From Euglena gracilis (lineage: Eukaryota), in the NCBI GenBank assembly GCA_039621445.1, contig CP154954.1, forward strand, positions 49,579,847-49,643,846: a stretch of DNA of 64,000 nt, read 5' to 3'. Positions within the stretch are counted from its first letter, which is position 1; every line of letters starts with the position of its first letter. Shown here in pieces: positions 1,919 through 49,035 of this stretch. The notes under the pieces were generated by a model that was given only the letters and a program-made list of their open reading frames with translations, had not been told where the DNA came from and searched no databases. The position numbers were made by a program, and so were the translations under genes.

Positions 1919-4900
1919 ATGGGCTGCGTCTATTGTGTGGAGCAGTCAGAGGTTGCTATTGTTGAATCATGGGGAAAGTACGAAGCCACACATCTCCCTG
2001 GCATTCATTGTTTAGTTCCATGCAGAGATCAAGTTGCCGGCAAATTGACTTTGAGGACACGAGAACTCCACATCAAAGTTGAAACTAAAACAGCTGACAA
2101 TGTGTTTGTGACAGTGCTCATGCTCCTTTCTTCATCCCTTGTAGTTATTTTCCCATTTTATATCAGAGCTTGAAAGAACTTTTTGAGGATTTTGCCTTTC
2201 ACTTTTTTTCCATGCAAAAATTTACCGACACTAACAGATTCTGCAGGGGCGCTGGGACATGCGAGCGAAGCGAGCGGCCCGGTGCCCCTGCTGTTAGTGT
2301 CGTTCTAAAAACCTATTTTGTGTGCCCGCACGCCTGTCTTGAATTTCATTCTACCGAACCGCCTGGATGGAAATATTGCCAAATAAGTGGTTTCCTGAAT
2401 GGAGATCCACCGACCTAAACAGATTCCGATGTCTTGGAAATCGACCAACCTTTGTTTCATTTTTCTGAATGACATTTTGTTCCATTTTGGGCATTTTTGG
2501 CAACATCTACATTTCCCCAAATTCTCGACCAATGAAACTGAAATTCCTGATTGTTAGATGATCAGGATCGTATCCGCCTGTTTCTGTTTCCACCAAAGAG
2601 TAGTAGCCTAGTAGGTCAATCTTTGTTCTTAATGGGATCCCCACCCCATTTTGCACAGCCAAAGGAAAAACCAGTGAAACCAGATTAGGGGAACCCCCTT
2701 TTCCATTTGTTTTATCGAAGCTTTGCATCGGTCACAAAGCTCAGTGGCCAGAACACAGGGTCAGTGACCTGAGGTTGTGGGTTCGAGCCCCACTGTGTGC
2801 ATTTCCATTTTTGCACTAATGTGAAATGATGTGCCTTGGGTTCAAAAACTGCATTCACAGTGGGGTTCATAATGGGCATTTTTTGAAGAAAAAAAACAAA
2901 ACAATGTATTCTTTTTAAAAAAAAAAACATCAAAAAACAAAAGGGGAATTTCATTGAAAAAAAAACTCGTCCACACTACGAAACAATGTCCTCGGGATCC
3001 TTTTTTCAACACAGCAGGTGCTTTTTGCATCTCAGCAACAAGAAACTCCAGGGATGAAGGGGCTTTCAGACTGGCCTCCCACACGAGGTTTTGCCGCTTG
3101 GCCACGAAGAACAATCTATAAAAAAAATGAAGAATCAAAATTTCGCTTTTCAACTTCACCTATTTCAACATTTACGGATTTTAGCAGGGGCACCGTTACA
3201 ATGAAACGGGTTTAAAGACAGGAGCCCGTTTCTTTGAAACAATTTTCAGAGGGGCGCCTTTACTATAAAACGGTTTTCTGAGGGGCGCCGTTTTCTTGAC
3301 AAAAACCACAAAAAAAAAACGGGAAAAAAGCGTCCGTACGGGTTACTAATCGTCGAACGTTGTTCAAGACAGGCGTGCGGGCCCTGCAAAATAGGTTTCA
3401 GAACAATCGACTGCACTAACAATTTTAGCAGGGGCGCCGGAGGCGCCAGGCCGCCCGGCGCCCCTGCTAAAACCGCTAGTGGCAGTTGATTTTTGTATAA
3501 AAACTTTTTTTCTGGGCTCGATGTCTGTCTTGAATTTCTGCTGATTTAAATGGAATTCAGGCTAAAATTGTTTAGGTCATTCCATTCAGGCGCCCGCTTA
3601 GGTCAGTCAATTTCCAAGCCGTAGAAATCTGTTGCTGGTCAGATTCGGAATTTTTAGTGAAATTTTGGACATTTTTGGAGTTTTACTTTTCTTCGAAATT
3701 TTGGGCACCATGGAGTTCAGGGAGCATTTTTAGCCTAGTCAGAGTGAATTTTTTCGGTCAGAGGGCAAAGATGACAGTTTTATTTTCTTGTCAATTCAAA
3801 GTTTTTTGTCCATTCTGACTTGCATGGCTGTCATCGCCCACATAGCTGGATGGAGATGTGTGTTCGAACTGCACCATAGTTGGCAATTTGTTTTTTTTTG
3901 GATGCTGTTTTTTTCAAAATTCAACAATGTTTTTTAAAAAACAACAAAAAATACCCATGAGGTTTTGCACAGAAAAAATTTTGAAAGCATATTTTCACTC
4001 ATTTTGGCAATTTTGGGTCATTTCTGACAAAAAAAAAAAAAAAAAAAAAGTGAAAAAAGTCATAACACAACATTGTTTTGCATTTTTGGATGGTTTTGAC
4101 CATTTTTTTGGCAGTGTTTGAATTTAGTGTCAGCGGCCCAAAAAAGGCTGAATGCCAAGATTTTCGAGGTGTTCGCTGTGAAGTGTGTAGTGTTTGGTGG
4201 CACTGGAAGTGTGTGGATCTCCGACATCCATCCAGATTTGGGTGGATGTGCGAGGGCTGTCGCAACGCTATGCAGTAGTTCGGTTTCAGTTGTGCAGTCC
4301 TGGTCGTGATTGTGTCTGGGTTATTTTTGTCACGTTTCTGTACTTACCACGTTTTCAGCTCTTTTTGAGCTCTGGGACACTAGAACCAAACCTGCGTGTG
4401 CAATTCTGCATTCACATATTCGTCATCTGTTCCATCAGTTACCAGGCAGGTACAAGTACAAGTAAACGGGCGCCCCTCTGAAAACCGTTTTAAAGAAACG
4501 GGCGCCTGCCTGTCTTGAAAACCGTTTTATTGAAACGGATGCCTGTCTTGAAAACCGTTTCATTGTAACGGCGCCCCTGCTAAGTTCCGTTAATGTCATT
4601 AAATTTTTAGGACAGGCGTCGGGCCCTGGAAATAGATTTTAATGGAGGCTGGGTGGTCAGGGGGGAGATGAATTTGAGGGGGGGTCTGGCCGGGGCGGCG
4701 CACGCGGCGCTTTTGCTACGGGCCAAATTTAGGACATTTTTTAAAAAAAATTGAAAAATAAAAAATTTCGGTAGTTTTTCAGACCGGGACAGCAGTTGTT
4801 TAATGAAATAATGTCGAAAAAATTCAGTCCAAGTTTTTTGGGGCATTTTGTGGGTCAGATTGTTTTGTGACCGCCTAGGCAGAGGGGGGGGGGATGAGGG

Positions 4901-7900
4901 GGGGTCGGGTGGGGGGGGGGCGCCACAGCATGCGTTGCGCCACGGCGCCAGGGGGGGGGGATGGCGTCCGGCAAAATGGCGCCATCTATACAAACAAGCC
5001 ATTCACCTCCAAATGTTGAGTCTCAAATCATTTTCTGAACATCCACTTAGGCGGCCGGATTTGCACTCAAGTTTTTTTTATGATTTGCGCACTTGCACTG
5101 CAGTATTCAAGCCGGTTCAGTCACCCCGTCGGCACCAGTTCCAAGTGTCGTAACAGCCGGTGTGTGCCTCTCACCTGTTTGATGTACGAGAGCACCAGTC
5201 TCACCCTCGGCCCTATTCACGTCACTCGGTAAGCAGCATGCACACCAAACCACCGGGAGTTAATGCCCTACAACACAGGGGTGTAACAGTTCATTAACTG
5301 TCTTCCGTGTGTCAGGGTACAGGGTCCCAGAAATTTCGTAAAATGGTCGAATTTGCGCAAATGAGCCCATTTCAAAGAAGAAACCCTTAAGTGCAAATCC
5401 GGCCGCCTAAGATCCAGCAAAAAATCAACCAATGTAACCAATATGGTTTTTGCATTTTCAGAACGTCGCAGGGCAAAAAAACACCCCATTCAATCAAGTG
5501 ACCACCCCAGAATGACATGAAAAATGAAAAATTAAACACAATAGTGGGGAACACAGGGGGGAACACAAACGTGTTTTTTTTACATTTTTGGATTTTGGCA
5601 AAATTTGCTTTTTCTTGGCATTTTTGGGATTTTTTTGTTGAATATCTGAAAAATATCTGATCCAAAAAATTCCTCATTTTTTGTCCGATTTTCCGCCGAC
5701 GCTTAAAATTTTGTCAAAAAATTTCCACTTTTGTAAATAATTGGCATTGCATTTTTTGTCAACAAAATGCTTATTTTTATGCAAAATGAGAAATTTTCCC
5801 CGGCGGAGCCGAAAATTCCTTTCCAATGTACATCCTGGGAGATCCTAAAGAATTTTGTATGCAATTTGCGGTTTTTTTTTGTGGGTTTTTTTGTGGTTTT
5901 TCGGTGGGTTTTTTTTGTTTTTTTTGTGTTGTTTTGCGTCGTGTTTTTTTGGGGGGTTCCATGTGTTTCCCCCCTGGTAAACAGCGTGGAAAAGATTTCA
6001 AATGAACAATGTAAGAGTGGGATCGAATGTGTAGGTGCCACTGACCTCCCTTCAATGGTTGGGTTTTGGTGCGGGTGGGTGGTGTATCACACCGAGAGGC
6101 CCCGAAACAGTTTTGAGCGGAGAGAGTGAAGCAAAGGGCTTTAGAATGGAAAGAAAGAGTGCGACACCAACCGTCACCATCATGTTCATGCAGGGTTGCT
6201 TGCATTCCTTGAATCTGTTCTGTCATATCCCCCCCCCCCGATCTTGTCCCATACCTTGGCCCACAACAGTCCCGGTGTGGGACAAGATCGGGGACAACAA
6301 GGGGGTCAACAAATTTCCTTTTGTGGACCCTTCCTTAACCCAGGCCATTGGCCGGGCATGAGACAAGATTGGGGACAAGATCAAGATCGGGGGGGGGGAT
6401 GATAATGAGGAAGGACCCCAAGATAGTTCTGTCTCAAATTAGTCCCAGACCCTCCCCCATTGTTCCTGACCTGAACTCTCAACCAGTTGACCCCCCACCC
6501 CAAATGGCCCAAATTTCATTGATTTTTCATCGAAAACCCCCCAAAAATTCAGTGCCTTTGGCGCTGGAACCCTGCCCCTCTCTGGGAAGTCAGCCGGTCC
6601 GAGTGACTAGCGAAGTCAACTGTGGGGGGGGGGGTCCAGCAGCCCCAACCCTCCCCAGTTGACAAACAAAGTCAACCGAACCGGGGGCGGTCCGAAAATG
6701 AAGTCAACCCAACTATCTACCTCCAAGGATGGCTGGAGACAAAGACCTATCAGAGGCAACTGCGCTTCCATAAGCCTGCAGTTTTCTTTCAAGACCGGAG
6801 GCGTCCAAAAAATGCAATTGGAACGAAAATTGAGAGCAGCAATTCCAAATTTAAGGCCTGTTTTTTTTGAAAGAAAGCATTTTCTTCTTTTTCAAAAATA
6901 TACGGAACATACCATCCCTGGGTATAGTATTTTGTGCATTTTTTTGCAACGTTCATGTTTCCTTTTTTTGCAAGTTTTTTTTGCAACTATGCGCAAAACC
7001 AAAAGAAACAAATGAATTTTTACATTTTTATATCTTTCAAATGTGAACTCCTGCGAAAGGAGACCAGGCAGAGGGGAGGGGTTGCAGCGCGCGCCGGGAG
7101 GTCCAGTGGGGCAGAACATGCGGTGCTTGCATTGTGGCGTGGGCCAAAATTTGGTCATTTTCTTCGGAAAAATGTTGATGTTTTGGCCATTCTTCGGGTC
7201 GGGATGGTGATTTTTCAAGGAAACATACAGGAAAAATAGTTTTAATTTTCGGGCTATTTTACGAGGGGTCAAAATTTTTTGAAACCCCCCAGCAAGGCTG
7301 GCAGTAAAAAGAATTTTTTTTTTGAAAAAAGAACACAAAAAAATCCAACAAGGGTTGGAGGAATATTCTTTTGAATGGGAATTTTGGTAGGGTTTTCCCA
7401 TCGGCCATCACATACACAGCGATTTCCAGGGGGATTTTGCCTGTGCCCAGGCTGGGCCGCCGGGCTGCCGGGACGTGCCTCCGGGTCGCCGCTGGGCAGG
7501 AGAAAAAGTCCCTTTTCAGAAAAGCCATCTTTTATGGCATTTTTTAAAATTCAAATCCCGACCCGGCTCGGCAGCTTGGGGTCGGCCTGACCTCCCAGCC
7601 TGGGCGCAGCTGGATCTGGTGGAGCATGCTGTCCTGGCTGTTGGCCTGATGGCCCAGCCCGGCCTGACTTCCTTGCATCCCACCCTAAAAGGGGCTGCTG
7701 CCGGGGGGGGGGGGGTTCCCATCCCTCCTAGTTTAGTCGTCCTCTGCCAAGGAGCTGCATATTTGAAGACCAAAAAAAATCTTCATTTTTGCTGGGCTTT
7801 TTGAAAAACTCAACATCCAGTATTGTTGAGCACCACACGTTCAGGGCAGACATTTATCAAGCCAAAACAAAATTTGTTGTTTGGGCGACTGGGACCAACA

Positions 7901-10900
7901 GACTGGATCAAAATGTGAACAGCAGTTTCAACCGAAATTGCAGCGGTGTGACGCTTGGCTTTCAGTTGTTGGGAGAGGGGGAGGGGACAGGTGGAAAACA
8001 ACAGGGCAGGGATGGGATGCAGTAGCCTGAGAAACAATATTGGTTGAAACCCATGTTCAGCAGCATTTTGCACGCAGAAATATAGGGGGTGATAGCTTCG
8101 GAACCAGTCGTACACCTGCAGTGCGGTATTGTGTCTCTTCCCTCCCCCACGTACATAACATCCCTGATACCCTCAAAACTCCCCTGGTGTATTTATGGGG
8201 AGGTCCAATAAAGGCAAAATCCCCTGGACTGGTCACCAGCGGCCTTGGACGGGTCACTGGAGGCCAAAAAAAGTGCGATTGGGAGGGAGGGTGTTACTTA
8301 ATTGGGGTGGCATTTATGTCGGGAGTGGTTCCATATCTATTAAAATATGCTGTGTGGTACAGTGTCATGTGGTGTGAGGAAGCTGGACGATGCAAACTTA
8401 AAAACAGGAGGGGCTCGTTGCTGGGTTTTGCAATGCGAGTACCCCTGGGCCAAGGTGCTGGACACCGGCCTGCGGCAGGCCTTCTATGAGCTGTCCCATC
8501 CAGGCTGAATTTTGAAGGTGAGGCCGACCCCGCTCCGGGAGGGGGGGTAATGCCTGGCTGCCAGACACTCAAAGGCCCTCCGACATCCCCCTCTGCCGGG
8601 GGTTGGACATACTCAGCCTAGTCCCATCCAGACCAGCAGCTGCACTCTTATGTCCTGAACAATGCCCACACAGGCGCTTTGGTTGGCTCTGAAGGGGGAG
8701 GGTTGCACCGGTTATTGCTTAAGGGTTCGCAGTGCCCCGGGGGGGGGGGGGGCTGAATTCAGGGGGGAGAAAATTGCACCGTGCAATTTTTGCAGTTTTG
8801 TGCAATTTTCGATTTTCCTGAAATGTGCAATTTTTGGCAATTTTGTGCAATTAATTGCACATGGCCCAGGATATTTTGTTTTGGAAAATGTCAGTTTTTG
8901 ATGCCTTTGAGAGCTTACCGGTTTTTTTTTTTTTTTTGTAACTGATGTGCGTAGTGAAAATTTCCGTTCAAAGGCTGTTTATTGTTGGTTTACTCAGTGT
9001 GCGAACCCTAACTTGAGTCCCCTGCCCAAGTGTCTTCCAACAGAAAAGGAAAAGGAAAAAGGAAGAAAAAAGGAGTTTTTTTTGGAAAACCGTGCAATAC
9101 GTTTTTTTTGGTTTTCGTGGTGCATGGTCCCTGGCATTCTTGTGAAGTCTGTCCATGCCTCTACACGTCGTCGGGTTTTCAAATTTCTCAAGGCGCAAGG
9201 TCGCCCCCTGACCCTCCCCCCCAAAGTAGGGGGCACCCGCTGGAACTCTTGCAGGGTTTTCCCCCTCAAGAAAAGGACCCTGTTACTGTGCAGGGACGCT
9301 TTTAAATGGTGGTGTGAGCATCTTTTGGAAATGAAAAATTTTTTAGCATCGGAAGTACAGCGCATGACACGTTGCGTCTTCCGCTGGATGATGAAAAAAT
9401 TCAGGATGTCCACTATGATGCTGTTCAATGGTGACATTGATGGCCGCTTTGTTTGACCGCGGCGGACTGCTGCCCAACAGGCTTCACCTGTTTTGCTGTG
9501 CCGCGCTGTCATTTTTGGATGTTCTTGACAAAGGAACAAGATGAGTCTCCAAGTAGGTGCATGTGTGCATGCTCGTTACAAGGGATCCAATGCAATCTCC
9601 AAGTATGTGCAATTTTGTGCAATTTTGTGCAATTTTGTGCACTTTTGTGCAATTTTTTTTGCACTGCAATTTTTGACCTTCCGATGTGCAATTTCTCCCC
9701 CCCCCCTGCTGAACTGCAGCTAGTCCAAATCTGCCCAGTGGGAATTCCAGTGGACTCCCCGGCGGGGGTCCGCCAGCAGGGCTAGCTAGTGGAAAGATTG
9801 AAAAAGATTGAATTTTTTTTCAAAACTTGCCAAAAATGGCCATATTTGGCCATGTTTGGGATTTTTTTTTGGAACATTTAAAACCTGATGTCCACCTCGG
9901 CACACAGCGCCGAAAATTTTTTTCCAGTCAGGGGGGACCCCCGGACACCGGCATTAAGTGAGCGTTGGTTTTGTACAGAGGGGTCCCTCCTCCCTCGGAG
10001 TAAGAGGCGGGGTCCAACCCCCCCCCCTCAGGCCCCCTCATTTTCTTCTTGCTCCAAGAAAACATCCAAGGCTGGGGTCGAGTGGAATACCAAAGCAAAT
10101 AGAAATAAGGGAACAGTGAGAGGACACATCCATTTTGATTGTGTGATCAGTTCTGAGTCGGACGTTCACAACGCTGGAGAGCCTTTGTGACCTGGTCAGG
10201 GCCCAGATCCCGAAGTACGAGCTCGACCAGCTGTTTTTGGCGAAGGATGAGATCGCCAAAACCCTGAAAACCGAGCTGGAGCATGAAATGAATCAGTTTG
10301 GCTACACGATCGTGCAGACCCTCATCACGGACATAGACCCTGCTCCGCTTTATGCTTGAAACCACAACCTCATCAGCTCATCGTCTATGCTTTGGAAATT
10401 CTGTCGGTGTGAGTTGATTTCCACCATCGTCATAAAGCGCTCGTTTAGAGAAAACAAAAGCAAACAAACGCATACGCACATATCCAACCTCCGCATGTGA
10501 CCAAGTGTGCCCGAGTCAACCTGTGCTTTTGCTGCGAAAGCGCATTAAAAAACTCCTCCAAAAGGGAAGCACTGTTTCTTTTGATTTGACTTTAACATGC
10601 CACGTTGACGTCGTGTACTGTGGCATTTTTTTTTCTTTTTCAATCTGGCAAGCGATTTCCAGAATACCAAGCATGCTTCAGAATCAGACGCAACGGTGAA
10701 GCGTGCTGGACAGGCTTCTTCAAAGCAGTCTCCTCTCCTCCAACTTAGCAACAAACTGTTACCGGCTGACAGGGATAAGATCAGACAGACCGCAGGAGAG
10801 TTCGACAGACCTGTCCTATATGGTGGCCAGATGTTTCTTTTAAAGGCTGGCGACCCGTGGGCTAAGTTACCCCCCCCCCCCCCACCAGAATGCTGTAGTT

Positions 10901-13779
10901 ACCCCATAGCACAAGGCACATTAGTTTGGTTCAAAAGGGGTGTTGTTATCATAGAGGGGGGGAAGGGGGGTTTCCAGAAAAAAAAGAAAGATGAGTTGGG
11001 GGATGGCCACAGGCCCCCTCTCCCCACCACCCAGGGTATTAAGTGAGCGTTGGTTTTGTCCAGGATGGAAGGGGTCAAACTATTGGGGTCCATATCCCCC
11101 TTTCCCCTTTCAGACCAAGGGTGAGGGGGTGTCCGGGACCGACCCAGAAACCAAAATTATTTTTCTTTGGCACTTCGTGCCGGTGAAGATGAAATTTTGA
11201 GTGTACGGTTGGCCGATACTTTTTTCAGCAAAAAAGTGCGCGAGAACGCCACTTTTGGGCCTGTTTGTCAAGGGCCGAATTATTCCGGTGCATTCCACTA
11301 AAAAATTTTTGCCCAGGGGAAGTGGGGTCCGACCCTCCCCTCCAGGGGGAGGGAGAGGGGTCCAGACCACCCCGCCTCCCCTCCTCTCTGCCACTTAAAT
11401 ACCCTGCCCCCACCGTCCGTCACCCCCCCCCCCTGTGCTGGCCCGGAGGGCATGGAATTCGAGACTGTGGTCACTGCTGCAATGTGCGAAAACGTTGTAC
11501 ACAGAACTTCCCAATTTTTTCCTGTTGCCATCTTGCCTATGTTGATTACTCTCTGGGAAACTGCAGCAAAAACAATAAAACCTTCTTTCAAATATTGTTC
11601 ACAAATTACGTGATCTGACGCTCCATGAAGACTCTTCCAGGTTACCAAAAGCCGTTATTTATAACTCATTGTTGGCCTGGATGCAAAGCAAACTTGAGTG
11701 CAAGGACTCCATAGATTGTCAAATGAAGCCTGGGGCTATGAATGACATCAACGCTGCCCAGCGATTGCGTGTCGCCTTCATACTTCCTTTCCTCTGTTCG
11801 TTGCCGAGTCGGCTACTTGAATTTTTCCAACATTTCTGAATCTTGCAGCAGTTTCCAAAATCGTTCAGTTACGACTCTGCCCTGTCTCTGTCAGTGAAAG
11901 GCAGTATGGCAACGGCTCATGACAAGGCGGAGGCGGAGAAGTTGGCAATTGTCAAAGCAGCTGAGGCGGATGCCGAGAGCAAACGGCTCTCTAAGGGAGA
12001 GGGCCAAGGGATGGCAACACTATCCTCTACATCAGCAGAATAGTGGAAGTGCAGTGGAATTGGGGCCTCTTTCCTGTTTTCCCGAACAACCCCCCCCCCC
12101 CGAAGAGCTTCCCCCGCCTACCATGATCCAAGGTGGCCACTTATTTTAAGGAAGCTTCCCATATCGTGGCCGAAGTTTATTCAAATTTGCATGATTCTGA
12201 AAAGAGTTTTACATGTTCTTTCGTATTCCCAGGAAACCGTTTTGTGCTGTTTCTTATGTTTACACTCCCCTGAACCTATGAAAAGAATTTTTAAGATTTA
12301 CAAAGTGCAAAGTTGTGTCCACAAGTCCACACTTTGTGCTGCTCTTGTATCAAAAGGTCCTCCCCCTCGTTGGGCGTTGGCCTGGCCGAGCAACGCAAGG
12401 CGATCATTATGGGCCTCCATGACTCCATTCGAATGTTCACAGCCCGACAGAGGTACCCCACAGACGTTACCCCTTCATTTACAGGACAGCTGTGTGTCCT
12501 TTGTGTTTTTCTTCGTAGTTGAGGAGATGCCTCTCCCCCACACCAACATCACGCAGTCGGAGGTGATGGAGCTGCTCCTCATGAATCAGTACTTCGACAC
12601 CCTGAAGGAGATGACCGCTTCCTCTCACGCGAAGACGATCTTTGTTCCCCACGACCCGGTCGCAGGCCGGGCCATCCCCTGGAGTTGTGTGATACCGTTG
12701 CTGGTCCGTTGCTCACTCCAAAAGGGTTGGACAGGGTGGTGCATGAACCCCCACCCCAAGGCAAAGCATCTAATTGAGAGCATGCATCCATTTGAGGGCC
12801 CCTGGGGATTGCTGGGCTTGGGTTAGAATTCGGGCTGCCTTGCTAATTCCCTCCGGGGGCTACCCCCGGGCTGTGCGGGCTGGGCTGTACCAATGGGACA
12901 ATTGCCAAAAAAAATCACTTGCAGAACACAGCTTTGAAAAGAAAATGAGCGTCTGGCGAATCCCCAAAACCCCCTGAAAACCCCTCAAAAAAACTTTTTT
13001 TTTAACCATTTTCGACCATTTCCCCATGGTTTCACGCAAAAGGGGGCTGGATGTTGGGCTGGTGGTACCCCGGAGGGAGGTGCTATGCGGCTGGACCGGG
13101 CTAAAATCGACCTCTGGGGTCTGCAAAACCTTAAAGAGCCAATGACCCATACCTTTTAATGAGGTGCCAGCACCGATGGCATTGGTAGCCCAGCAAAGAT
13201 TCATTCTTCAAATGAACTTCAGATGAAGGGCTTTTCTCTGAAATGCGAATTCCCTCCACTAAAACGACGCGCCAGAGAGAGAAACAGAAAACGGATACAG
13301 AAAACCTCGCACTGTCCCCCAAACGCCCCAGATGGCATTACAGCATTTTTCGCACCGAATATTGCTTATGCCGTATCCTGGGGTGTTTGCTGGCGATGGG
13401 CTTTTTTAGCCTTCCCAAACGAGGGCATTTTCGTTTATTTCATTTCGTCGAAAAAGTGCTCAAACACAGTCAAAATTGGTGAAATGAAATGAGCGTTTTT
13501 CTCCTTTCATGGTTTCCTTGCATATTTTTTTGACTGAAATTTCAGTCCAGCTGCATTTGGATGATTTCCTTTTGGGCTGTAGCCCGGTCAAGCCTGGCAG
13601 TCACCTGGCCTCCTCCCCGCCGTCCTCCGCTGTGCTAACTGTATTCCCCATCCTTCAATTTGCGGGAAAAACAGCCTGACACATCACACCACATGTGGTG
13701 GCTCGCCCTCGCCCAGGGCATCGGGCAGCAGATACGACAGGGTTTGCTGGAGGCTGGTCAAAGCTTTAAAATGGACTGA
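1919..13779 (+). CDS. SPFH/band-7 (stomatin/prohibitin) domain protein, HIR-like; 11 exons: 1919-2114, 5094-5114, 8453-8497, 8626-~8654, ~10186-10341, 10687-10707, 11738-11775, 11914-11991, 12372-12445, 12540-12658, 13717-13779 (840 nt, 279 aa)
   Basis: Joined exons read MGCVYCVEQSEVAIVESWGK...ETKTADNVFVTVHCSIQAEVLDTGLRQAFYELSHPDQQLHSYV(C/L)DLVRAQIPKYELDQLFLAKDEIAK...[43 protein letters not shown]...AESKRLSGVGLAEQRKAII...LLMNQYFDTLKEM...IFVPHDPGIGQQIRQGLLEAG. This is colinear over the full length with plant HIR proteins as I recall them. Junctions 1 and 4 are uncertain by a few nt. Confidence 0.92.
2730..2801 (+). pseudogene. Degenerate tRNA-like sequence (pseudo-tRNA or tRNA-derived SINE head) in SPFH intron 1
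   Basis: A-box-like AGCTCAGTGG and a T arm gtggg-TTCGAGC-cccac at tRNA spacing; acceptor and anticodon arms are imperfect. Confidence 0.55.
3175..4589. mobile_element. Non-autonomous TIR element in SPFH intron 1 carrying a PHD-finger fragment; possible TTA TSD
   Basis: TIR cggattttagcaggggcaccgttacaatgaaacgg / ccgtttcattgtaacggcgcccctgctaagttccg, flanked by tta on both sides; internal VRCEVCSVWWHWKCVDL...WMCEGC (~4171-4278). Confidence 0.75.
6227..6400. mobile_element. Small MITE-like element
   Basis: Ends atC(n)gatcttg / caagatcG(n)at are inverted repeats; internal ggacaagatc units. Confidence 0.55.
8760..9708 (+). mobile_element. hAT-family deletion derivative inside SPFH intron 4
   Basis: TIR caggggggagaaaattgcac / gtgcaatttctccccccccc(c)tg; subterminal tgtgcaattt arrays; imperfect flanking repeat gctgaatt/gctgaact; internal ORF fragment PPKVGGTRWNS contains the hAT transposase TRWNS motif. 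Confidence 0.75.
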
Positions 13780-16605: not shown

Positions 16606-16950
<345 letters not shown>

Positions 16951-17174: not shown

Positions 17175-20282
<3,108 letters not shown>

Positions 20283-32225: not shown

Positions 32226-35200
32226 TGAGAGGAAATTGACTGACTCTTTCTGACCCATCGATCCCATTCTGCTTTTGTACCACTATTGAGACTGTCCTTG
32301 TTGGCAACGTCCCTTCAGAATATTGGGTCTTTTTGTTGAAAAGCACGGAAGAATGTGAGTGCATTTGTGCTGGTATTACCCCCCCTTTGTCCTTGACGCG
32401 GCTGGTCTATGACCCCCCCCCCCCCCGTGTCAACCGCACTCTCCCCGGTATTTTTGCGTGTCAAGGACAAGGGGGGGGAAGGCATGAGGTCGCCCCCAGG
32501 TTGCTGAGCCAGCCTGGACATGGCAGCCCATGGTGGAAGTAGAATGGCAGGAAGCAGAAGCAGTGGTGAAAAAAAAAGTGTGACTTTCCTCCAGGTTAAA
32601 GAAGCCAAAGAAGCCTGATTCCCATCCCGGACATCCCTGGTATGCTTTTGTCAAAGTCTGTGTTTCTTAAACCAAGCTTTGGCACGCCAAAGCCTGTGTT
32701 TAGGAACACAGACTTCGACGGGAGGATGTGCAAGTTGAATAATTTGCATAATTCAAAATCTTGAGAATTTGCTTTTTTTGCATCCCCCCCCTTGTCCCTG
32801 GGCCCCGGCTTGTTGAAGGGTTTTCAGCCCAACCTTCAGCTTTTGATATCATACCCCCTTATTTTCCAGTCGGGGGTTCCGGAGGAAGGTGGGAGGGACA
32901 ATCAGACGAGGAGGGAAACATTGTGGGTATTAGCACTGTTGTGAATTCTCGCTTCAGAGATCCTTTTGGCCATTTCTCTCCTGTGGAACGGTGCCTTGCT
33001 TTCTTTCCAGCAGTCTTCATTCAATCACGATATGCACGAGCTGACCATTTTGGTGTTTGATGTTTCATATTTCACATCTCCGGCAGTAGGGGGGTGCATA
33101 TGAACTTGCCAGGGCGTCGCATAAACCGAAGGGCTATCCCCCCGGGGGTCCCTGGGCCTGCGCGACGGTGACCAGGCTGTTTTTTTTTAAGTCGGGTGCC
33201 TGGGCAGGCACTCCAAGGCACAAAAATCCAACCCGCGTAGTTAGCGCCGGCCATAAACAGACAAGAAGCCTTGTGCAACTAAGGGCATAGGGCATTCGAA
33301 AAAGAGTGCCTGGCAGGCACTCCGGCAAGACTCAAAAAAGGCTCATTTTCAAGTAAAATTGCCTTTTAAGTTCCTGGGCACAGGCTGAAATCCAACCCAC
33401 CCCGGGGGGGGAAGTGCCTGCCTTCCCACTCAAGGGCACGGGGTTGGTTTAAAAAAAAAAAAAACAGCCAGACGGCGACGGAAAGTTGGATTTTGGAGGG
33501 GGGCAAAAATGGCCCAAAAAGAGGGCAAGAATGAGTCAGGTAGGAGTTTGGGGGTCAAAAAATCAATTTTTTCGCACAATTGGCAGTGTTCTGCGCATTT
33601 TTTGCATTCCCCCCCACAAATATATTGACCATCCCCGACCTTTTGCCGCACGCTTGAGTTGTCGCTGGCGGAATGGGGAAAGGTGTCGGGGGAGCTTGCG
33701 CCAATTAATTTCAGCCATTTTCCGTCTCTTTGATTTGCGACAAAAAAAACTGACAATTTTCCCAAACGTAGCACCGACAGGACAATAAAAATTTTCGGTG
33801 CCAAGGAAAAAAGCCATTGCGCCAGACACCTTGGGCTCCGCACTTTGCCTTTGTGAGGCAATGCCCTGCTCGCCGGCGGTTTGTTGCGATTGTTTTGGGG
33901 CGCTGGGTTAGGAGCCCCTGCTCAGTGCCTTTTTCGCCGGAGTTGGCTGACTCCTAACTTTCCCTTCGAAACCAAGAAGACAGGAACAGAGTTCACAAAC
34001 GAAGAAGAGCCGAGAAAAGACGCCAATACCAATTGGCAATGGAGATTGGAATTTTTTGGCCGCGGACGTCCTGGAGCAGTGGCCTAAGCAGCTGGAGCCC
34101 TTGGGGATGCGGTCAACACGTGGAAAACGTGGCCGTTCTTCCCCCCCCCACCCCCCCCCCCACAAAATTTCACCAGCACCCACCCCCCCCCCCCCAGTGT
34201 GACGGCCACGGTCCTTAGACCACTGTGGCCAGAAGACCAAGAATATGGAAGTCAGCCCCAGCTGGTGATGGGCAAAGGAGGGGCCATGGGGGCCCAAAAT
34301 GTTTCATAATTGGACAACCAAAGCCGACGCATCAGGGGCATCTCCCCCAAAGGCGCCCAGTCGCCTATACACAAATTGGATGGGGAGATGTAATCAAGGC
34401 CAAGGTGGTCACCACTACAGGGGCCACGGGGGCCAGTTTTACAAGCAAAGCCCCTCAGGAAGGGGCAGAAAAGGTCTGTCCAACCCCCGAATTCATCTGA
34501 CACAATGCCCCCTTTCAAGGGGAAAAGGGGGGGGGCACAGCAGCCCCCACAGATTTCCAATGGGGTTTGAGGCCAAGAAAGGCCCAGGGAACCAACAGAT
34601 GGATTATGGAAGAAAATTTATACATGGAGACCTTGGAAGCCAGCAGGGTGGACCCACAGTGGCCACCAAGAAGATAAGGGACATCATCCCACAGCTGCTG
34701 GAGAAATCCCCCGGGGACCCACAGAGGCCCTCTGCCAAAAAAGGGGGGAAAGGGGACCAACAGTGGCCCTTTCACCAAAGACCCAGCCCCAGGAGGAAAA
34801 GGGACCAACAGTGGCCCTTTTGGAGGGAGGGCAGGAACTTCCTCGCGGGAGTACGATAGGATGGATCCAAAAAGTGAGCCCCCAGAATTTGCGCCGCGGT
34901 TTCTGAATGAAAGACAGGATAGAAATTGCTTCAGTTTCAAATCGGTACCGAGTTGCTTTTAGAAACTTTGGTCTTTGGCTCCCCACTGGTGGATCGGCCA
35001 AAACTTTTTGGACAGTTTTAAGCTGCGTTTGCGAAAAACCTTAGAAAGTTACCCCCAGAAGCCATTTTTTTATGTAAAAAAAGAGCGACTAGGAAGGGGC
35101 TCGCTATGCAGCCTGGGGTTTTTGGGCGGAGGGCGGTGTTTGGATTAAAAAAAAACTTCGTTTCTCCAGCCGCCTGACTTTCACAGCAGCTTGGCCCGCC

Positions 35201-35922
35201 TTACTCAATACCCACCTTGCCTTTGTGCTTCGAAACATCAGTCCCTCTTGTCCTGCTCTTGGCTTTCCGGGAAATACCGAGAGCACCTGGAAGAGCTCTT
35301 TTAGTGTCGGGAAGTTTCTGGCCGGACATTTTTTTTTGGTGTTAAAAGTATTTTTGGAGTCTGTTTTAGGTTTCCTCACATTTTTGCAAAATTAGTGGTG
35401 GCCATCTTTTTTTTAGAGTGCGCATTGGGAATTTGGGCTTTTTTGTTGAACCGGCATTTTGCGAACTTTTCAAAAATTTAAAGCAGAAAGCGAGAGATGG
35501 GTGAAATTGGCCCCCATGGCACCCACGGACCCCAAACCCAGAAGTCGCAGCATTGTTCCGCTCCGGTGCGTATGGTCCGAGGGGGTACGATGATGTGGAG
35601 TTTTTCGCATGAGTTTAAAACACAACAAAATTTAATTGTTTTGCATTCTTACCTTTTCAAGGGGAAAAAATCTCTGTGTTCCTAGCTTAAAAAAAAAAGA
35701 GTCAGAAATTGCACCTTCTAGCTTTCTGAGCTTTTTTAAGGGCCAAGCGCCGCGGGTGGGCAGGTGGCTAAAAATTATTTTTGTGAGAAAACTCCCATTT
35801 TTGAGGCAACGATGAAAAAAATGATGCACAAACACTGATCCAACTTGGATGAAGTGCAAGCGATTCAATCAATGCAATCATTCCGTACCGACAAACGTTC
35901 ACAAAGCTTAATGTACATGCTG

Positions 35923-38900
35923 TCACTGCCAACCTCGACCCTGAAATTGCTGCGGGTACGCGGTGAGGGCAACCAAGGCGGAAATGAAGATGCCTGTTGA
36001 AAGCACGGGCTCAAGAGTGCCGTGAAGAGACGAAAGGCCCCCCTCGTCCTCACAACGGTGCATATGTTTGGGTGCCGTGCCGCAACCGGTCTTTCTGGTG
36101 CTGAGACCCTCCCCCAGGCTTTGAAGCAAAGACATTATTTCTGTCTGGCAGCGTGTTGTGAAGCTGAAAGGTAATAATTATTTGGCTTGGGGGGGGGATG
36201 CGCAGCCTCCAAACGATTTGTTTCCATTGTCAGTCAAATTTCAGAGGGTCACCACCAACCGTTGGCGCGGCCACCGCCACCCTTGCGCGTTGTACAGGAA
36301 CCGGGGCAGCCAGCCGCGGAAGAGGCGGCGCACTCCCCCGCGCTGCCTGAGCCCCCGGAACGCGACGACGACCCGCTCCGCCATCCCCAGCAGGCCATAC
36401 GCCCGGGCGCGCCCGGGATAGGGCGTGTCCTACCGGGAAGGGAGGGGGAGGCGGCATCGCCAAGGTTGCATGGGAAGCCCCGACGGGAGATGCTCCGGGA
36501 GGGGCCAGGGAGAGCCAGGACCTGAAGCCATGTGCTTCGGGAGAAAATGCGTCGACATGGACAGGAAGAAAATTCGGGCATCAAAAAAAAAGGTCGGTTT
36601 CTGCAAAAAGGCAAGCATAATTGTAAAAAAGGTCGGGGTCATGTTGAAGCACGTTTAGGCCATTCTTTCTAAATTGGAAAAATATTTGCGAAATAATTAA
36701 CCCCGACCCCCCTGGCCTCCAACTGGGATTTTGGGTGCCCTATTAATTAATCAGGGGGTGGTTTGCTAATTGGGGGAGGTTTGGGGTTTTTCTTAAGAAA
36801 TTAAAAGGTTCTTTAAAAATTGATCACGGGGTCATGTGCTCCGCATTGTTGTACTTGGGGCTCATCATTTGGGGGGTTACATGGCGTTCCACTTTCTTCT
36901 GAAAACATTGTTCCACAACTCTAACTTTTTTCGATCCAGCAGCAGTCCTTTGCGCTCATTTGTCGACATAAACCCACACCTAGGAGAAGGGGGTCCCCAC
37001 CCACCCAGACTGGCATTGGACCCCAAGGACCTGAGGACCCCAAAAAACTGCGCCATCTGAGGGAGTTTCCCAAAAATTTTCTGGCGCGGGGGCTGTGGCC
37101 CCAGACCCCCCCATGGGGAGTCTTCTGAGTTGACGCGGCACTGCACACCACTTGCGCCGGCGGCTCTGTCAGCAACTCGGAGGCCACGGTGTCGGACGGC
37201 GCAGAGGGGAGGCTTGCCAGCCCCGCGCACAGCGACGCCCACGCGATGAGCTGCGCCACGATGGGCACCGGGCTGTGGACGAAGATGGGGACCGCGACAG
37301 GCGGGGCCCCACTCGCGCTGACGGAGGGGAGGGGTGGGGTTCGGGCTGGGGGCCCCGCCTGGCCCCAGTCCTCGAAGTGGTGGAAGAGGGCAGCGCTCCA
37401 CAGCAGCGTCTGCAGATCCCTGGGGCAGGCGTGGGGTTGGACTCCGGTTCGCCCGCAGGGGGTTTCCCTGCCCACTTGGGGGGTTGGCTGGGGGCATGTG
37501 CGCAAACATAATTTTTTGAAAGTTGCCATACCTGGCTCCCAAAACTTGAATACTTTTATTATGGTGTGGTTTGGTGCCTGAACCCAAAATGGAAATCAGG
37601 ACTTTGATGATGATGAGAACGGCCCAGACAAGGGGTCTCTGCATACGCGGCACACATGTGTGTTCGGGTACCAGCCAATGGTGCCTCATCAACACATTGC
37701 GGGAACGATTTTGGGCAGGCGAGGCTGAACCCCACAGCAAACCCCCCACTTGAATTGTTGAAAACTTGTTGGTCCATTTTGCACTGTGTGGCATTGCACA
37801 ATCACACAAACGGACTAATAAGCTGCACGAATGGACCCCTTGCAATTGTGCGAAGTGGATCCCCTACAATGCTGGGACCGGCCGTCACCAGGGGGAATTG
37901 TTTAAGGTGCCTGAAAAAAACTTAAAAAGTGCCTTAAATTATTTGGCCGAAATGCCTGAAAAACCTTCAAAATCCTTTAATCCTTAAAAAAAACCTTAAA
38001 AATCATTCTAAATTTTTTCGAAATTTGAGAAAAAATGAAGTCGCATGGAACATTCTCTATCCACCCAAACTCGAAAAAGTGGCAACTGCCTTTAATTTTG
38101 GACCCTGTACGATGCCGGGATGGCCTTTCCCTCCTTGGAAAATAGACGCCATAAAAATTAAAAACCTTAATTTTCTTAAGCCTTCAAAAATATAATGCTC
38201 CCTGGTCACCACCAGTTTAAAAACCTCGTCCCCGGGAGGGAAAAAAGTGGGAAAACTGTGGTGTTGAGCACGGCGACAGAAATATGGCCTAAATGCAAAA
38301 TTTGGCCACCTGAACGCTCAAACACAGCGGCCGTGAGCTGTGAGCCCTCCCCAACGCCCCGGTTTGCACTGCACAGGGGAGGGCACCGGAACGCGACGGC
38401 GAGCCAGCCCACCGCCAGCTGCCAGTTCTGGCGGCGGAACATGGTGCGGACGGCCCGCAGAGAGACGCTGCGGCTGAGGACCCCTGCCTGGCGGCGCCGG
38501 CACCACACATCTGTTTAAGGACCCCGGGGGTAGGGGGGGGGGGGCTGGGGTTTTGGGCGGGCGGTGTGGCCAGCCCCCCCCCCCCCCCGCTGGAGTGGGG
38601 GAAGGCTGGATCCTGGCTGAACTGAGCTGCGACAGGCGGGGCCGGAATCAGAGAATTGTCCAAAAAAATGACCGCCAAAACAAGCTTTGAAAAAAAATGA
38701 GCGTATGACAATCCCCAAATCCCCTCCCGAAAAAGACCAGAACACCATTTTTTGGCCATTTTCAAAACACTTTCGGCTGGAGCATCCGGGGGGGGGGGGA
38801 GGGCTCCGCCGGGGGGGCCGGGCCCAAAACGGGGCTGGAAGCAGCAGCCCCCCCCCCCCCCCGGGGGTCTGCAAAACCTTAAAGACATGTATGGCTGGCA

Positions 38901-41052
38901 CATCAGCTCGAAGGGGATGCGAAGGAAGGAGCTGATGAGCACCGCCATCGACCCTGGGGCGGGGGAGGGGAAAGGGGAAGGAGGGACCAGTCCACTCACT
39001 GGGGATGGAAAGATGCCAACCTTCCCCTCCCGGGTGAGAAGCACAATAGACACAGTGAGCCAGGAAACATATGCTGAGAAACAGCAGGATTCATTCACCA
39101 TGGGGGGGTGGCTGGTGGCGGGAGGGGGCAGGTGTAAAGTGGGGGGGGGGGTGCCCTGGACCCTGCTCGCCCTCTGAGAGGGTAGGGATCGACCCCCGGG
39201 AAAAAACCCGGCGCAAAAGCGCCAGAAATATTTTTGAAGGGCATTAATGAATGCCCAAAATTGCATTTTCAGGTGATATTTTCATATATTGCAAAAATTG
39301 GCGTCCCAACTGGCCTTAATGGGGGGTGTGGGGTAAACTTGAAAATAAATAACCCTGTTCCCTTTTGCATTTTCGGAATAGGTCTGAAATGTTCTTGCGA
39401 TGTTGGGGTCACTTGTAATCCGAAAAGATTCTTTACACAGGAAAGCCCGAAATTGGCCTTTTGACTTTCATTTGGGGAGCGGGGGGAAGGGGGGGTCTGG
39501 ATGGGGGGGCATTTCCCTTGGAAAAATGGGGCCATGCGCGTCAGTGAGGGGGGTGTGGGGGTGTGGGGGGAATTTGCTGGTGGGGACGCCAATGTTTGCA
39601 ATACTTCGATATTTTTCATCAAAATGCCAAAATAAAACAGATGATAAAAACATAAGTTTTTGGTGCAAAGCGCCGAGAAAGTAAATCTTTTGGTTCCATA
39701 GGGGGACTTGGGGTGGTCGTCACCCCGACCCTTGGGGGGGGGGATCGAACCACCCCATTCCTCTCTCCTGAACAAAATGAGCACTCACTTAATACCGGGG
39801 GGCTGGGCGAGGAGAGGCCATTGGGTGGGGGAGTGAAACTGCCCTGAGGTGGATTCTGGGCGAAACAAACTCCCGCACGGTGGATGCTGGGATGCAGGGG
39901 TTTGAGCCGCACTCGAATCAACCCGAAGGCACCGCGAGCCCGGCGAGGAAGCCCGCCGGGAAACCCACCGGGGTCGTGCCACCGGGGTCGTGCCACCGGG
40001 GGGACGGCGGGGGGGGGGCCGGGGGTGCGGACCAGCCAGCAGCGTGCCGGCCGGGTTCATCAGCTGGAAGGGGGCGGAGCTGAACGCGATGAACGCGCTC
40101 ATCCACAGCGCCCGGGCGACGCCCTCCTTGAGCACGCCCCAGCCCAGGCCGCTGTACAGCCCTGGGGGGGACAGGGGGCCGGCGGGGGGGGGGGGGCTGG
40201 TCCAGCCTGAGATGGGACCCGGCTGTGGGGGTGGCCCGGAGTGGCCCGGGAGGTGCTGGCGGCTGAGGCGGCGGCTGGGGGTGAGGGTGAGAGGGTTTGT
40301 TCCGTCCCTGGGTCCACGGTGTTCCATGTCCCGCGGAGAACCGTCCGGGAACCATTCTCCACAATTGGAGAATTTCCGGCGGGTAAGTTGTCCAAACTTA
40401 CCCACCAGACAAATCTCTTCAAAAGCACCTGCTTTGCTCTCCTGAAAAAAACACCAGACTCTAACGGAAGGGCCGATGCGGGTCGCACACTGCGTGCGGG
40501 TTTCCTTTGCTGGCAACATGAGGGGGATGCAACACGGAGCCTGGAAAATATGACTCAAAAAATGCGGGGGCAAAAAGACTAAAAATACAAAAACAACTGT
40601 GTAACAAAAACAAGTTGGAACGCTCGATTCTTAAAATGTGTAATTTGTCCGAAAATTGAAAAAAAGGGCCAAAACTTACAAAACATACTTTACGCTGGGA
40701 AAAACATTGTCCAAAAATGTAGTGCTTTCTTCGCCAAAATAATATGTCAGACAAATTCAAAAACTGACAAAATAAACACAAACCATGCCAAAAGAGCAAA
40801 TGCGGGAAAAAGTTGAAAAACGTTTGACTTGTTCTTATTTAAAAAGACGGCAGTTGTGTTCCTCGGCTGACACCTCGCCGCCACACACCGAGAACCCCCT
40901 GCGAGTTGATCCCCGGCTGCTCCAGCTGCAGCCGCGTCTTGTACGTGTCCAGCGGATGGAGCAGCACAGCGTAGGCGGAGGAGGCGAGGACGGCCACCAG
41001 CAGGTCGGGAAGGGTGTTGTACACCAGGGTGTTCACCGCCGTGGCGGCATCA
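35923..41052 (-). pseudogene. 5'-truncated inverted copy of the mitochondrial carrier gene
   Basis: Mirror of exons 44508-50930. The arm boundary at 41297 falls inside the putative upstream intron, so exon(s) in the spacer are not on this strand. The coding exons present look intact. Confidence 0.7.

Positions 41053-49004: not shown

Positions 49005-49035
<31 letters not shown>

Follow-up and report, generated by a model that had tools for sequence, protein, structure and literature searches.

Terminal pairing at a largely shared register in nonconventional introns of a Euglena gracilis SPFH gene

Ten introns in an SPFH gene of Euglena gracilis and one in a neighboring DnaJ-domain gene are probably ordinary euglenid nonconventional introns, of a non-spliceosomal type that would be excised by nuclease and ligase-type enzymes. 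The genes lie in a window of 64,000 nucleotides (contig CP154954.1), to which all positions refer. Among all protein-compatible placements of these 11 anchored introns, no GT-AG border was found, which agrees with the initial annotation, made from the sequence alone, that had called the introns nonconventional. Its claim that the triplets at +4..+6 and -8..-6 change in sequence and keep their complementarity also held, since 29 of 33 triplet positions were paired, against a mean of 17.3 (maximum 25) after swapping of the 3' arms among the introns (5000 swaps).

The host gene was modeled by homology. It matched Pfam PF01145 (Band_7) with 35.2 bits in exon 1 and 32.9 bits in exon 5 (cut-off 23.6), and the spliced product of 283 amino acids aligned without gaps to the protein P0002, with 243 of 283 residues identical. 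The gene and its exons are as follows.

SPFH gene, 1919..13779, + strand: 11 exons and 10 introns; homology-based model; euglenid membrane-scaffold gene.
Exon 1, 1919..2116, + strand: ATG at 1919, N-terminus beginning MGC; Pfam Band_7 positions 3-62 (E 1.6e-8); tblastn to P0001 and P0002.
Exon 2, 6170..6188, + strand: 19-nt microexon, coding for TVTIMF plus the first base of the K codon; top 7-mer, matching the paralogs.
Exon 3, 8453..8497, + strand: tblastn and exon model.
Exon 4, 8626..8663, + strand: tblastn.
Exon 5, 10195..10341, + strand: Pfam Band_7 positions 99-147 (E 8.2e-8); 98% identical to P0001.
Exon 6, 10687..10707, + strand: 21-nt microexon (DATVKRA); tblastn and exon model.
Exon 7, 11738..11775, + strand: tblastn.
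Exon 8, 11914..11991, + strand: tblastn.
Exon 9, 12372..12445, + strand: tblastn.
Exon 10, 12540..12664, + strand: tblastn.
Exon 11, 13711..13779, + strand: stop codon included; tblastn, exon model and spliced-product alignment.

A comparison with transcript-derived proteins gave four matches among 18 candidates for exon 1 (the best at 85%) and eight among 51 for exon 5 (the best at 98%); the exact SPFH product was absent among those reached by the exon 1 and exon 5 queries and among members of the two closest clusters. Metagenome contigs contained no match to an exact 32-nt word of the SPFH exons, and the exon 1 peptide found 52 loci there, all at 67% identity or less and none a close relative.

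To locate exon 2, all 5029 stop-free 7-mers lying between exons 1 and 3 were scanned. The segment TVTIMF(M) at 6170 ranked first with a score of 28, the region near 5091 came second with a score of 20, and an exon at 6170..6188 gives TVTIMFK, the same as in the paralogs. The 7-mer scan and this paralog identity show that the intron placed at 5115-8452 in the initial annotation was wrong, and that intron 2 runs from 6189 to 8452. A microexon near 5089-5114, considered in the frames TCTAVFK and HCSIQAE, was dropped in favor of the site at 6170 given by the scan; in register pairing these two models ranked only about 360 and 396 among 9965 combinations. Seven of the ten introns listed initially were confirmed by protein homology that made no use of pairing: six (8498-8625, 10342-10686, 10708-11737, 11776-11913, 11992-12371 and 12446-12539) by the gap-free alignment to P0002, and 17283-17517 by the restored HPD motif of the DnaJ domain. 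The triplets of all seven are as first written. The list had missed the intron at 8664..10194, and an end of the last intron at 13710 is more likely than the listed 13716, judging from its pairing rank and fully paired triplet.

The junctions were placed by protein homology, so that 2 to 12 placements remained per intron; register 2 denotes intron position +k opposite -(k+2). The 11 anchored introns, SPFH introns 1-10 (I1-I10) and the DnaJ-gene intron (J1), are as follows.

Intron 1 (I1), 2117..6169, + strand: 4053 nt; a slide by -1 is synonymous; triplet paired at two of three positions.
Intron 2 (I2), 6189..8452, + strand: 2264 nt; three equivalent placements, from 6187..8450 to 6189..8452.
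Intron 3 (I3), 8498..8625, + strand: 128 nt; CAG/CTA; whole-intron fold pairs +5..+11 with -7..-13.
Intron 4 (I4), 8664..10194, + strand: 1531 nt; CAC/GTG; two placements; 15 bp at register 2, -19.1 kcal/mol, also in the whole-intron fold.
Intron 5 (I5), 10342..10686, + strand: 345 nt; CCG/CAG (C-A mismatch); distal stem of 8 bp at +10..+17, the only part kept in the fold.
Intron 6 (I6), 10708..11737, + strand: 1030 nt; CAG/CTG; stem CAGGCTTC/GAAGCCTG; agrees with the published code.
Intron 7 (I7), 11776..11913, + strand: 138 nt; CAT/ATG; fold pairs +3..+9 and +11..+16 with the 3' end.
Intron 8 (I8), 11992..12371, + strand: 380 nt; GGG/CCC; cannot slide at the mRNA level.
Intron 9 (I9), 12446..12539, + strand: 94 nt; AGA/TCT; duplex of -13.7 kcal/mol at register 2; terminal helix missing from the whole-intron minimum-energy fold.
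Intron 10 (I10), 12665..13710, + strand: 1046 nt; CGG/TCG; duplex of -20.9 kcal/mol; helix missing from the whole-intron fold.
J1, intron of the neighboring DnaJ-domain gene, 17283..17517, + strand: CAT/ATG; 19-bp duplex, -24.1 kcal/mol, reaching +1.

The end pairing exceeded both of its controls, random pseudo-introns and arm-swapped sets, a check that had been named beforehand. The strongest end-to-end duplex could take register 2 in 9 of 11 introns, while sets of random pseudo-introns averaged 2.06 and never exceeded 7 (2000 trials). End duplexes ranged from -10.3 to -24.1 kcal/mol, seven of them at -18 or lower, compared with a mean of -8.9 kcal/mol for random pseudo-introns, 4.65% of which reached -18. 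The triplet was fully paired in 7/11 introns over the protein-compatible placements, where about 2.05 would be expected after allowing for the 2 to 12 placements per intron (Poisson-binomial P = 8.3e-4; 8e-4 with random 3' arms, 50000 trials). From +3 to +12, 87 of 110 positions were paired, as against an arm-swapped mean of 53.8 and maximum of 68. Positions +1 and +2 were paired in 6/11 and 2/11 introns, and these, like all exon positions, stood at background; an earlier scan, run on an intron set that was later corrected, had likewise given exon-exon pairing diagonals of about 0.4 or less, except one at 0.49. The helix begins at +3/+4, leaving about 3 unpaired nucleotides on the 5' side and 5 on the 3' side, and does not extend into the exons.

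Minimum-energy folds of ten whole anchored introns (I1 left out) kept the register-2 terminal helix in seven cases, namely I3, I4, I5 (distal part only), I6, I7, I8 and J1. In the fold of I2 the helix was kept at register 3, and in those of I9 and I10 it was lost. In the fold of I8 (z -2.14), the unpaired ends measured 2 nt on the 5' side and 4 nt on the 3' side, and J1 was the sole intron whose fold paired +1. The single register claimed initially for all introns therefore describes most of them, with I2 off by one nucleotide and I1 weak and mixed. The 16-bp terminal stem of I2 (-22.8 kcal/mol), which carries CAG/CTG at its base and is also present in the whole-intron fold, lies at register 3, or at register 1 after sliding, and never at register 2, so that its spacers are 2/5 or 3/4 nt and not 3/5. 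The end duplex of I1 is weak (-12.9 kcal/mol) and mixes registers 4, 3 and 1 (2, 1 and -1 after the -1 slide). The same intron also holds a tRNA-like element and a decoy site near 5091-5120. On the whole, the initial observation was partly confirmed and its interpretation partly supported.

J1 interrupts the invariant HPD motif of the DnaJ domain: the match to Pfam DnaJ positions 1-30 stops at 17282, and the joined reading is AHPDRGGD. Two further proposed introns, 46664-47056 and 50565-50846, have end duplexes of -20.5 and -20.2 kcal/mol at register 2, and no protein family was found to anchor either one in a Pfam search of the 150 longest stop-free segments of the window. The genes around 46664 and 50565 are without family assignment because that search, which covered 150 of 450 segments of at least 75 amino acids, gave nothing beyond the DnaJ match and a weak match to Zip. 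A duplicated copy of 46664-47056 provides no covariation information, as the stems are identical.

In tRNA and archaeal bulge-helix-bulge introns, a splicing endonuclease cuts and an RtcB-type ligase joins. Like them, the introns here would have their sites defined by RNA structure rather than sequence, with an excised intron that can circularize; unlike them, they have no exon-side helix at either cut and no paired 3-nt bulges around a 4-bp helix, and exon positions -8..0 on the same diagonal paired at the arm-swapped background. In Ire1/RtcB splicing of HAC1/XBP1 mRNA, Ire1 cuts within the loops of two separate hairpins. Removal of an mRNA intron by a nuclease and a ligase instead of the spliceosome would be common to both, whereas here a single long-range helix has both cuts at its open base. 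RNase III-type cleavage is staggered and leaves a 2-nt 3' overhang, which equals the geometry of +1 opposite -3. The stem with a 2-nt 3' overhang that the initial annotation had inferred was not borne out, however, because pairing of +1 and +2 is at chance level and the overhang is a matter of geometry and not of the helix; neither +1 and +2 nor the exon flanks are paired, which places the cuts outside double-stranded RNA. The analogies with tRNA splicing and Ire1 were drawn by Milanowski 2014 (PMC3935182), who proposed an endonuclease of either kind followed by a ligase.

Removal by a divergent or auxiliary spliceosome, with the helix merely joining the intron ends, as in non-canonical introns of some other eukaryotes, appears quite unlikely for the introns described here. 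The end rule of U2-type spliceosomal introns did not hold for them, as 10/11 had no GT/GC-AG placement at all; the one GC-AG placement compatible with the protein is in I3, where an 11-nt direct repeat creates 12 equivalent placements. I3 and I10 do each offer a GC-AG alternative in which a C-rich tract ends in CAG, and the question was left undecided in Gao 2024 and in a 2024 review (PMC11282704). I10 is the least certain junction, since there is a length-conserving GC-AG alternative, 12671..13716, which would give a different mRNA. The placement 12665..13710 ranked top among 1146 in-frame start/end pairs, with 9/10 pairs and the length of the paralogs kept, and it is the only one of three pairs tied at 9 that has a fully paired triplet. 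According to Nomura 2025 (PMC12501133), splicing of such introns requires exact helix-measured spacer lengths, unlike spliceosomal recognition. The same 2024 review, citing a 2021 J Mol Biol paper, reports excised introns as full-length circles and not lariats; Gumińska 2018 makes no mention of circles. Members of the euglenid class would also be expected to leave the transcript later than its conventional introns.

Direct repeats were present at 7/11 junctions, 11 nt long in I3, and the terminal inverted repeats together with these short border repeats resemble transposon-derived introns (introners, MITE-like). A difference is that introners elsewhere depend mostly on the spliceosome for their removal, at GT-AG or near-canonical sites. 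That the pairing is just a fingerprint of a founding MITE-like transposon, with terminal inverted repeats and target-site duplication and no role at the splice sites, was raised by Milanowski 2016 (PMC4770533) as a possibility; we regard it as highly improbable. Unrelated intron sequences here have the same offset, and the window has no further copies of the intron ends beyond the two within its inverted duplication. Moreover, synthetic 50-nt introns built from the rules alone were spliced, and removal of the pairing abolished function (Nomura 2025, PMC12501133), so that published mutagenesis has already largely refuted the transposon explanation.

The assignment to euglenid nonconventional introns is supported by the non-GT-AG borders, the terminal helix with pairing of +4..+6 to -8..-6, the unpaired spacers of 3 and 5 nt, the slidable junctions due to direct repeats, and the lengths of 94 to 4053 nt. 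A purine starts the downstream exon in 11/11 introns and a pyrimidine closes the upstream exon in 9/11, the same preference as in the 55 introns of Milanowski 2016 (PMC4770533). The positions also match the consensus of Gao 2024, CCAGG at +3..+7 and CCTG at -9..-6. What the initial annotation had inferred, a fixed register with complementarity in place of sequence, is already in print (2014 and 2016), and a genetic test followed in 2025. Milanowski 2016 (PMC4770533) described complementarity, rather than sequence, as maintained at +4..+6/-8..-6, compensatory changes between homologous introns, and pairs other than CAG/CTG in 22/55 introns. Nomura 2025 (PMC12501133) tested spacer lengths and compensation genetically, found that splicing needs pairing adjoining the motif as well as spacers measuring 3 and 5-6 nt, and identified additional sequence constraints.

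These constraints bear on how far the triplet sequence itself is read. If a sequence code dominated, with C-D-G and C-H'-G required at fixed spacers as set out by Nomura 2025 (PMC12501133), the non-consensus triplets here would belong to introns that are misplaced, poorly spliced or rescued by unusually long stems. We consider this unlikely, although in that study single substitutions in CAG or CTG abolished splicing, and among the compensated second-position variants tested CTG-CAG alone was still spliced. The initial claim that the register, and not CAG, defines the sites is accordingly sustained by complementary non-CAG triplets and weakened by these mutants and by the C at +4 in 8/11 and G at -6 in 8/11 introns; the absence of the exact SPFH product among the transcript-derived proteins likewise favors a sequence code. 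Against such a code, the triplets of six anchored introns are fully complementary without being C-N-G at precisely the published spacing (CAC/GTG, CAT/ATG twice, GGG/CCC, AGA/TCT and CGG/TCG), and each of these introns is followed by a purine-initial exon. The strict signature, N3-CDG ... CH'G-N5-6 | R, fits I6 alone (1/11), and I2 fits only with N4 or N2. In E. agilis, the signature covers 61.2% of nonconventional introns and leaves out 38.8% (Nomura 2025, PMC12501133), and for this reason it does not define the intron class. The departures seen here fall within this reported variation and that of the 22/55 introns lacking CAG/CTG.

The sequences show that each intron carries terminal inverted repeats, which pair in the pre-mRNA into a helix. 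Its base lies within the intron, about 3 nt from the 5' junction and about 5 nt from the 3' junction. Usually C(+4)-G(-6) is the closing pair; the two pairs that follow vary freely and stay complementary, and a purine forms the first base of the downstream exon. In light of the published mutagenesis, the splice sites are probably fixed by how far they lie from the helix base, along with a preferred, non-obligatory CAG/CTG-like sequence. Excision would most likely be by an endonuclease and an RNA ligase, and there is about an even chance that the ligase also closes the excised intron into the full-length circle. Our literature search found no paper joining Euglena nonconventional introns with RtcB.

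It is possible, and we propose it tentatively, that N3-CDG/CH'G-N5-6 is just the commonest case of a geometric rule, by which it is enough that any helix base stands 3 nt away from the 5' cut and 5 nt away from the 3' cut, with a tolerance of one. The six introns with the complementary triplets named above (6/11) match this geometric reading. The Results of Nomura 2025 (PMC12501133) contain no compensated double mutants for the outer C-G and G-C pairs. The contribution of the locus is modest: a corrected SPFH gene model including the 19-nt microexon, natural introns outside the strict signature that would be suited to the existing knock-in assay, and in I2 one natural intron with 3/4 or 2/5 spacers. 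Any constraint on what the machinery excising euglenid nonconventional introns recognizes is useful. If the geometric rule is true, the approximately 39% of Euglena nonconventional introns that lie off the code would share the register and would be compensated at all three triplet positions, including the outer C-G and G-C pairs.

The window is euglenid nuclear DNA. Its + strand encodes an SPFH/Band 7 protein at 1919-13779; within that gene, exon 1 (35.2 bits) and exon 5 (32.9 bits) separately pass the Pfam cut-off of 23.6 bits. The closest proteins in a large protein collection were two paralogs, P0001 and P0002, with identities of 98% and 94% to exon 5 and of 82% and 85% to exon 1; one member of P0001's cluster bears a euglenid label. 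The exact product of the gene was not found in searches of the protein collection, among the cluster members or in metagenome contigs. All intron junctions in this gene and its DnaJ neighbor are based on protein homology. Nine of the 11 coding pieces were placed directly by tblastn with both paralogs, leaving TVTIMFK (7 residues between exons 1 and 3) and a DATVKRA microexon, which was located at 10687-10707 by reading the sequence and confirmed by the gap-free model. The alignment of the 283-residue spliced product with P0002 is gap-free and has 243 identities.

Exons of the SPFH gene, with the basis of placement
1919-2116, +, exon 1, homology model
6170-6188, +, exon 2, 7-mer scan and homology model
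8453-8497, +, exon 3, homology model
8626-8663, +, exon 4, homology model
10195-10341, +, exon 5, homology model
10687-10707, +, exon 6, sequence reading and gap-free model
11738-11775, +, exon 7, homology model
11914-11991, +, exon 8, homology model
12372-12445, +, exon 9, homology model
12540-12664, +, exon 10, homology model
13711-13779, +, exon 11, homology model

Exon 2 was identified by scoring each of the 5029 7-mers free of stop codons in 2117-8452; among these, TVTIMF(M) at 6170 was clearly the top match (score 28) and the region at 5091 was the runner-up (score 20). Joined to 8453, 6170..6188 yields TVTIMFK, the same peptide as in the paralogs. The initial annotation had read 5115-8452 as an intron, which is contradicted by these scores, position 5115 lying inside intron 1. 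A TVTIMFK piece near 5094-5114, considered in two frames, came only about 360th and 396th when the 9965 combinations that conserve length were ranked by register pairing. The source of the error is a decoy at 5091-5120 within intron 1, where TCTAVFK, which ranks second in similarity to the peptide of the paralogs' microexon and may be a decayed duplicate microexon, is followed by CAG; this CAG (5118) complements by coincidence the CTG at 8445, which is part of intron 2. Intron 1 also contains an inverted-orientation repeat (3168-3298 / 4459-4596, 80% over 138 nt) and a tRNA-like element at 2730-2801 (+), scoring 31.5 bits against the Rfam tRNA gathering score of 29, which may be a tRNA-derived repeat or pseudogene; ARAGORN called no tRNA anywhere in the window.

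The neighboring DnaJ-domain gene (17193-17598, +) has its HPD motif split by a nonconventional intron. The Pfam J-domain match ends at profile position 30, base 17282, and joining across 17283-17517 restores the invariant motif; this predicted intron is anchored independently. Long microsatellites occur at 16607-16946 (CACA, 85 copies), 18093-18246 (GT, 77 copies), 18921-19077 (GT, 78 copies) and 19195-19353 (GTGC, 40 copies).

For each of these 11 introns, the two junctions were shifted together in all ways that preserve the protein sequence, which gave 2, 3, 12, 2, 4, 6, 3, 2, 4 and 3 placements in SPFH introns 1 to 10 and another 3 in the DnaJ intron. Because of direct repeats, seven of the 11 can also slide at the mRNA level; the 12 equivalent placements of intron 3 arise from a flanking 11-nt direct repeat, GTCCCATCCAG (window 8493-8631). 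As initially claimed, the introns are nonconventional: none of the protein-compatible placements has GT-AG ends. A single one, in intron 3, has GC-AG ends and a C-rich tract whose last bases are CAG; this intron may belong to the "intermediate" type. For intron 10, a GC-AG alternative (12671..13716) also keeps the protein length, and its junction is the least certain of all. The SPFH intron ends have no repeats elsewhere in the window; introns 4 and 6 have a 29-nt segment in common (9950-9978 / 11035-11063, 93%), and a TGTGCAATTT tandem array lies at 9606-9656 within the SPFH introns.

End pairing was assessed by predicting duplexes, without bias, between the 24-nt segments at the two ends of each intron. 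The main register was 2 (position +k opposite -(k+2)) in introns 3 to 10 and the DnaJ intron, that is, in 9/11, compared with a mean of 2.06 and never more than 7 in 2000 trials of random window pseudo-introns given equal sliding freedom; random pairs without such freedom had main register 2 in 5.3%. The proposal of one shared register held for these nine introns; introns 1 and 2 departed from it. Intron 2 forms a strong duplex of 16 bp (-22.8 kcal/mol) whose base is CAG/CTG, in register 3, or 1 after a slide, leaving 2/5 or 3/4 unpaired nt (5'/3' spacers) outside the helix; register 2 would disrupt the reading frame. The intron 1 duplex is weak (-12.9 kcal/mol) and of mixed register.

Triplets at +4..+6 / -8..-6 and pairs formed
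SPFH intron 1, CAT/GCG, 2/3
SPFH intron 2, off register, not applicable
SPFH intron 3, CAG/CTA, 2/3
SPFH intron 4, CAC/GTG, 3/3
SPFH intron 5, CCG/CAG, 2/3
SPFH intron 6, CAG/CTG, 3/3
SPFH intron 7, CAT/ATG, 3/3
SPFH intron 8, GGG/CCC, 3/3
SPFH intron 9, AGA/TCT, 3/3
SPFH intron 10, CGG/TCG, 3/3
DnaJ intron, CAT/ATG, 3/3

The triplet was fully paired in 7/11 introns versus about 2.05 expected with sliding (analytical P = 8.3e-4; P = 8e-4 from random 3' arms). Fully paired triplets also rose with sliding at registers 0 (4/11) and 4 (6/11), so the duplex test discriminates better than the triplet test taken by itself. When 3' arms were exchanged between introns, triplet pairs dropped from 29/33 to 17.3 (maximum 25 in 5000) and pairs over +3..+12 from 87/110 to 53.8 (maximum 68), which shows that each intron has its own complementarity and that a shared consensus does not account for it. 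The most varied pair, +6/-8, was formed in 11/11 introns through G-C, C-G, U-A, A-U or G-U. The triplets vary yet stay complementary, as the initial annotation had noticed.

Pairing at +1 (6/11), at +2 (2/11) and at exon positions on the same diagonal was at background, +3 was paired in 7/11, and the helix base is separated from the 5' junction by about 3 unpaired nt and from the 3' junction by about 5. The suggested "stem plus 2-nt 3' overhang" therefore states an offset, not a structure. Bulge-helix-bulge introns and the RNase III model need exon-side pairing, which here is background, and for this reason neither model accommodates these introns. Whole-intron folds covered SPFH introns 2 to 10 and the DnaJ intron, intron 1 being too long; only the DnaJ intron paired from +1. 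The minimum-energy fold contained the register-2 terminal helix in introns 3, 4, 6, 7, 8 and the DnaJ intron, only a distal stem in intron 5, and the register-3 helix in intron 2; introns 9 and 10 lacked a terminal helix, their arms pairing with other partners. Independently, and unused by the initial annotation, the first base of the downstream exon was a purine in 11/11 and the last base of the upstream exon a pyrimidine in 9/11, in agreement with the published data on 55 euglenid nonconventional introns (PMC4770533).

A large inverted duplication (33829-41297 versus 44263-53000) may be a genuine palindrome or may stem from misassembly: 44263-48971 matches 41297-36584 (99.3% over 4717 nt) and 50268-53000 matches 36585-33829 (98.7%), the right arm being about 1.3 kb longer (extra 48972-50267). 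Two putative introns listed initially, 46664-47056 and 50565-50846, each recur in the left arm, where the copies have the same stems.

Milanowski 2014 gives CA at +4, +5 with complementary TG at -7, -6 as the most conserved feature, and suggests that a nuclease resembling Ire1 or the tRNA-splicing endonucleases acts first and a ligase second (PMC3935182). Milanowski 2016 found +5, +6/-8, -7 paired in all 55 introns, +4/-6 unpaired once, CAG/CTG in 33/55 and numerous compensatory changes between homologous introns (PMC4770533); genome-wide E. gracilis logos show CCAGG at +3..+7 and CCTG at -9..-6 (Gao 2024, PMC11170887). According to Nomura 2025 (PMC12501133), a 5' spacer of 3 nt is obligatory, the 3' spacer is 5 nt, 6 being tolerated and 4 tolerated poorly, pairing adjoining the motif is required, and splicing is lost when CAG or CTG carries a single change. 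CGG-CCG, CGG-CTG and CTG-CAG were functional, other compensated second-position pairs were not, and the Results describe compensation at the second position only; synthetic introns following these rules are spliced, and the signature fits 61.2% of nonconventional introns. Full-length circles of excised nonconventional introns are described in a 2024 review citing a 2021 paper (PMC11282704). The observation, the inference that register rather than CAG defines the splice sites, and the proposed circle test are thus all already published. The initial observation stands in part, one listed intron being wrong and one missed; its interpretation is partly supported and adds little new.

The helix base, spacers and purine are seen directly at this locus, and the requirement for spacers and pairing comes from published genetics. 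An enzyme would measure from the helix base, cut both strands within the unpaired spacers and then ligate the exons; the same ligase would also close the intron into a circle, in the manner of tRNA introns. We give this nuclease-ligase step an even chance; spliceosome-assisted removal of these introns is a possible alternative. With its published spacers, the strict signature of 2025 occurs in 1/11 introns (intron 6), and intron 2 would fit only with a 4-nt 3' spacer. Fully complementary triplets outside the signature were present in 6/11, which suggests, from a small sample of natural intron sequences, that the outer triplet pairs may also be open to compensation, a point that the 2025 supplementary datasets may already cover. 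These six introns could be used directly as substrates in the knock-in assay already described.
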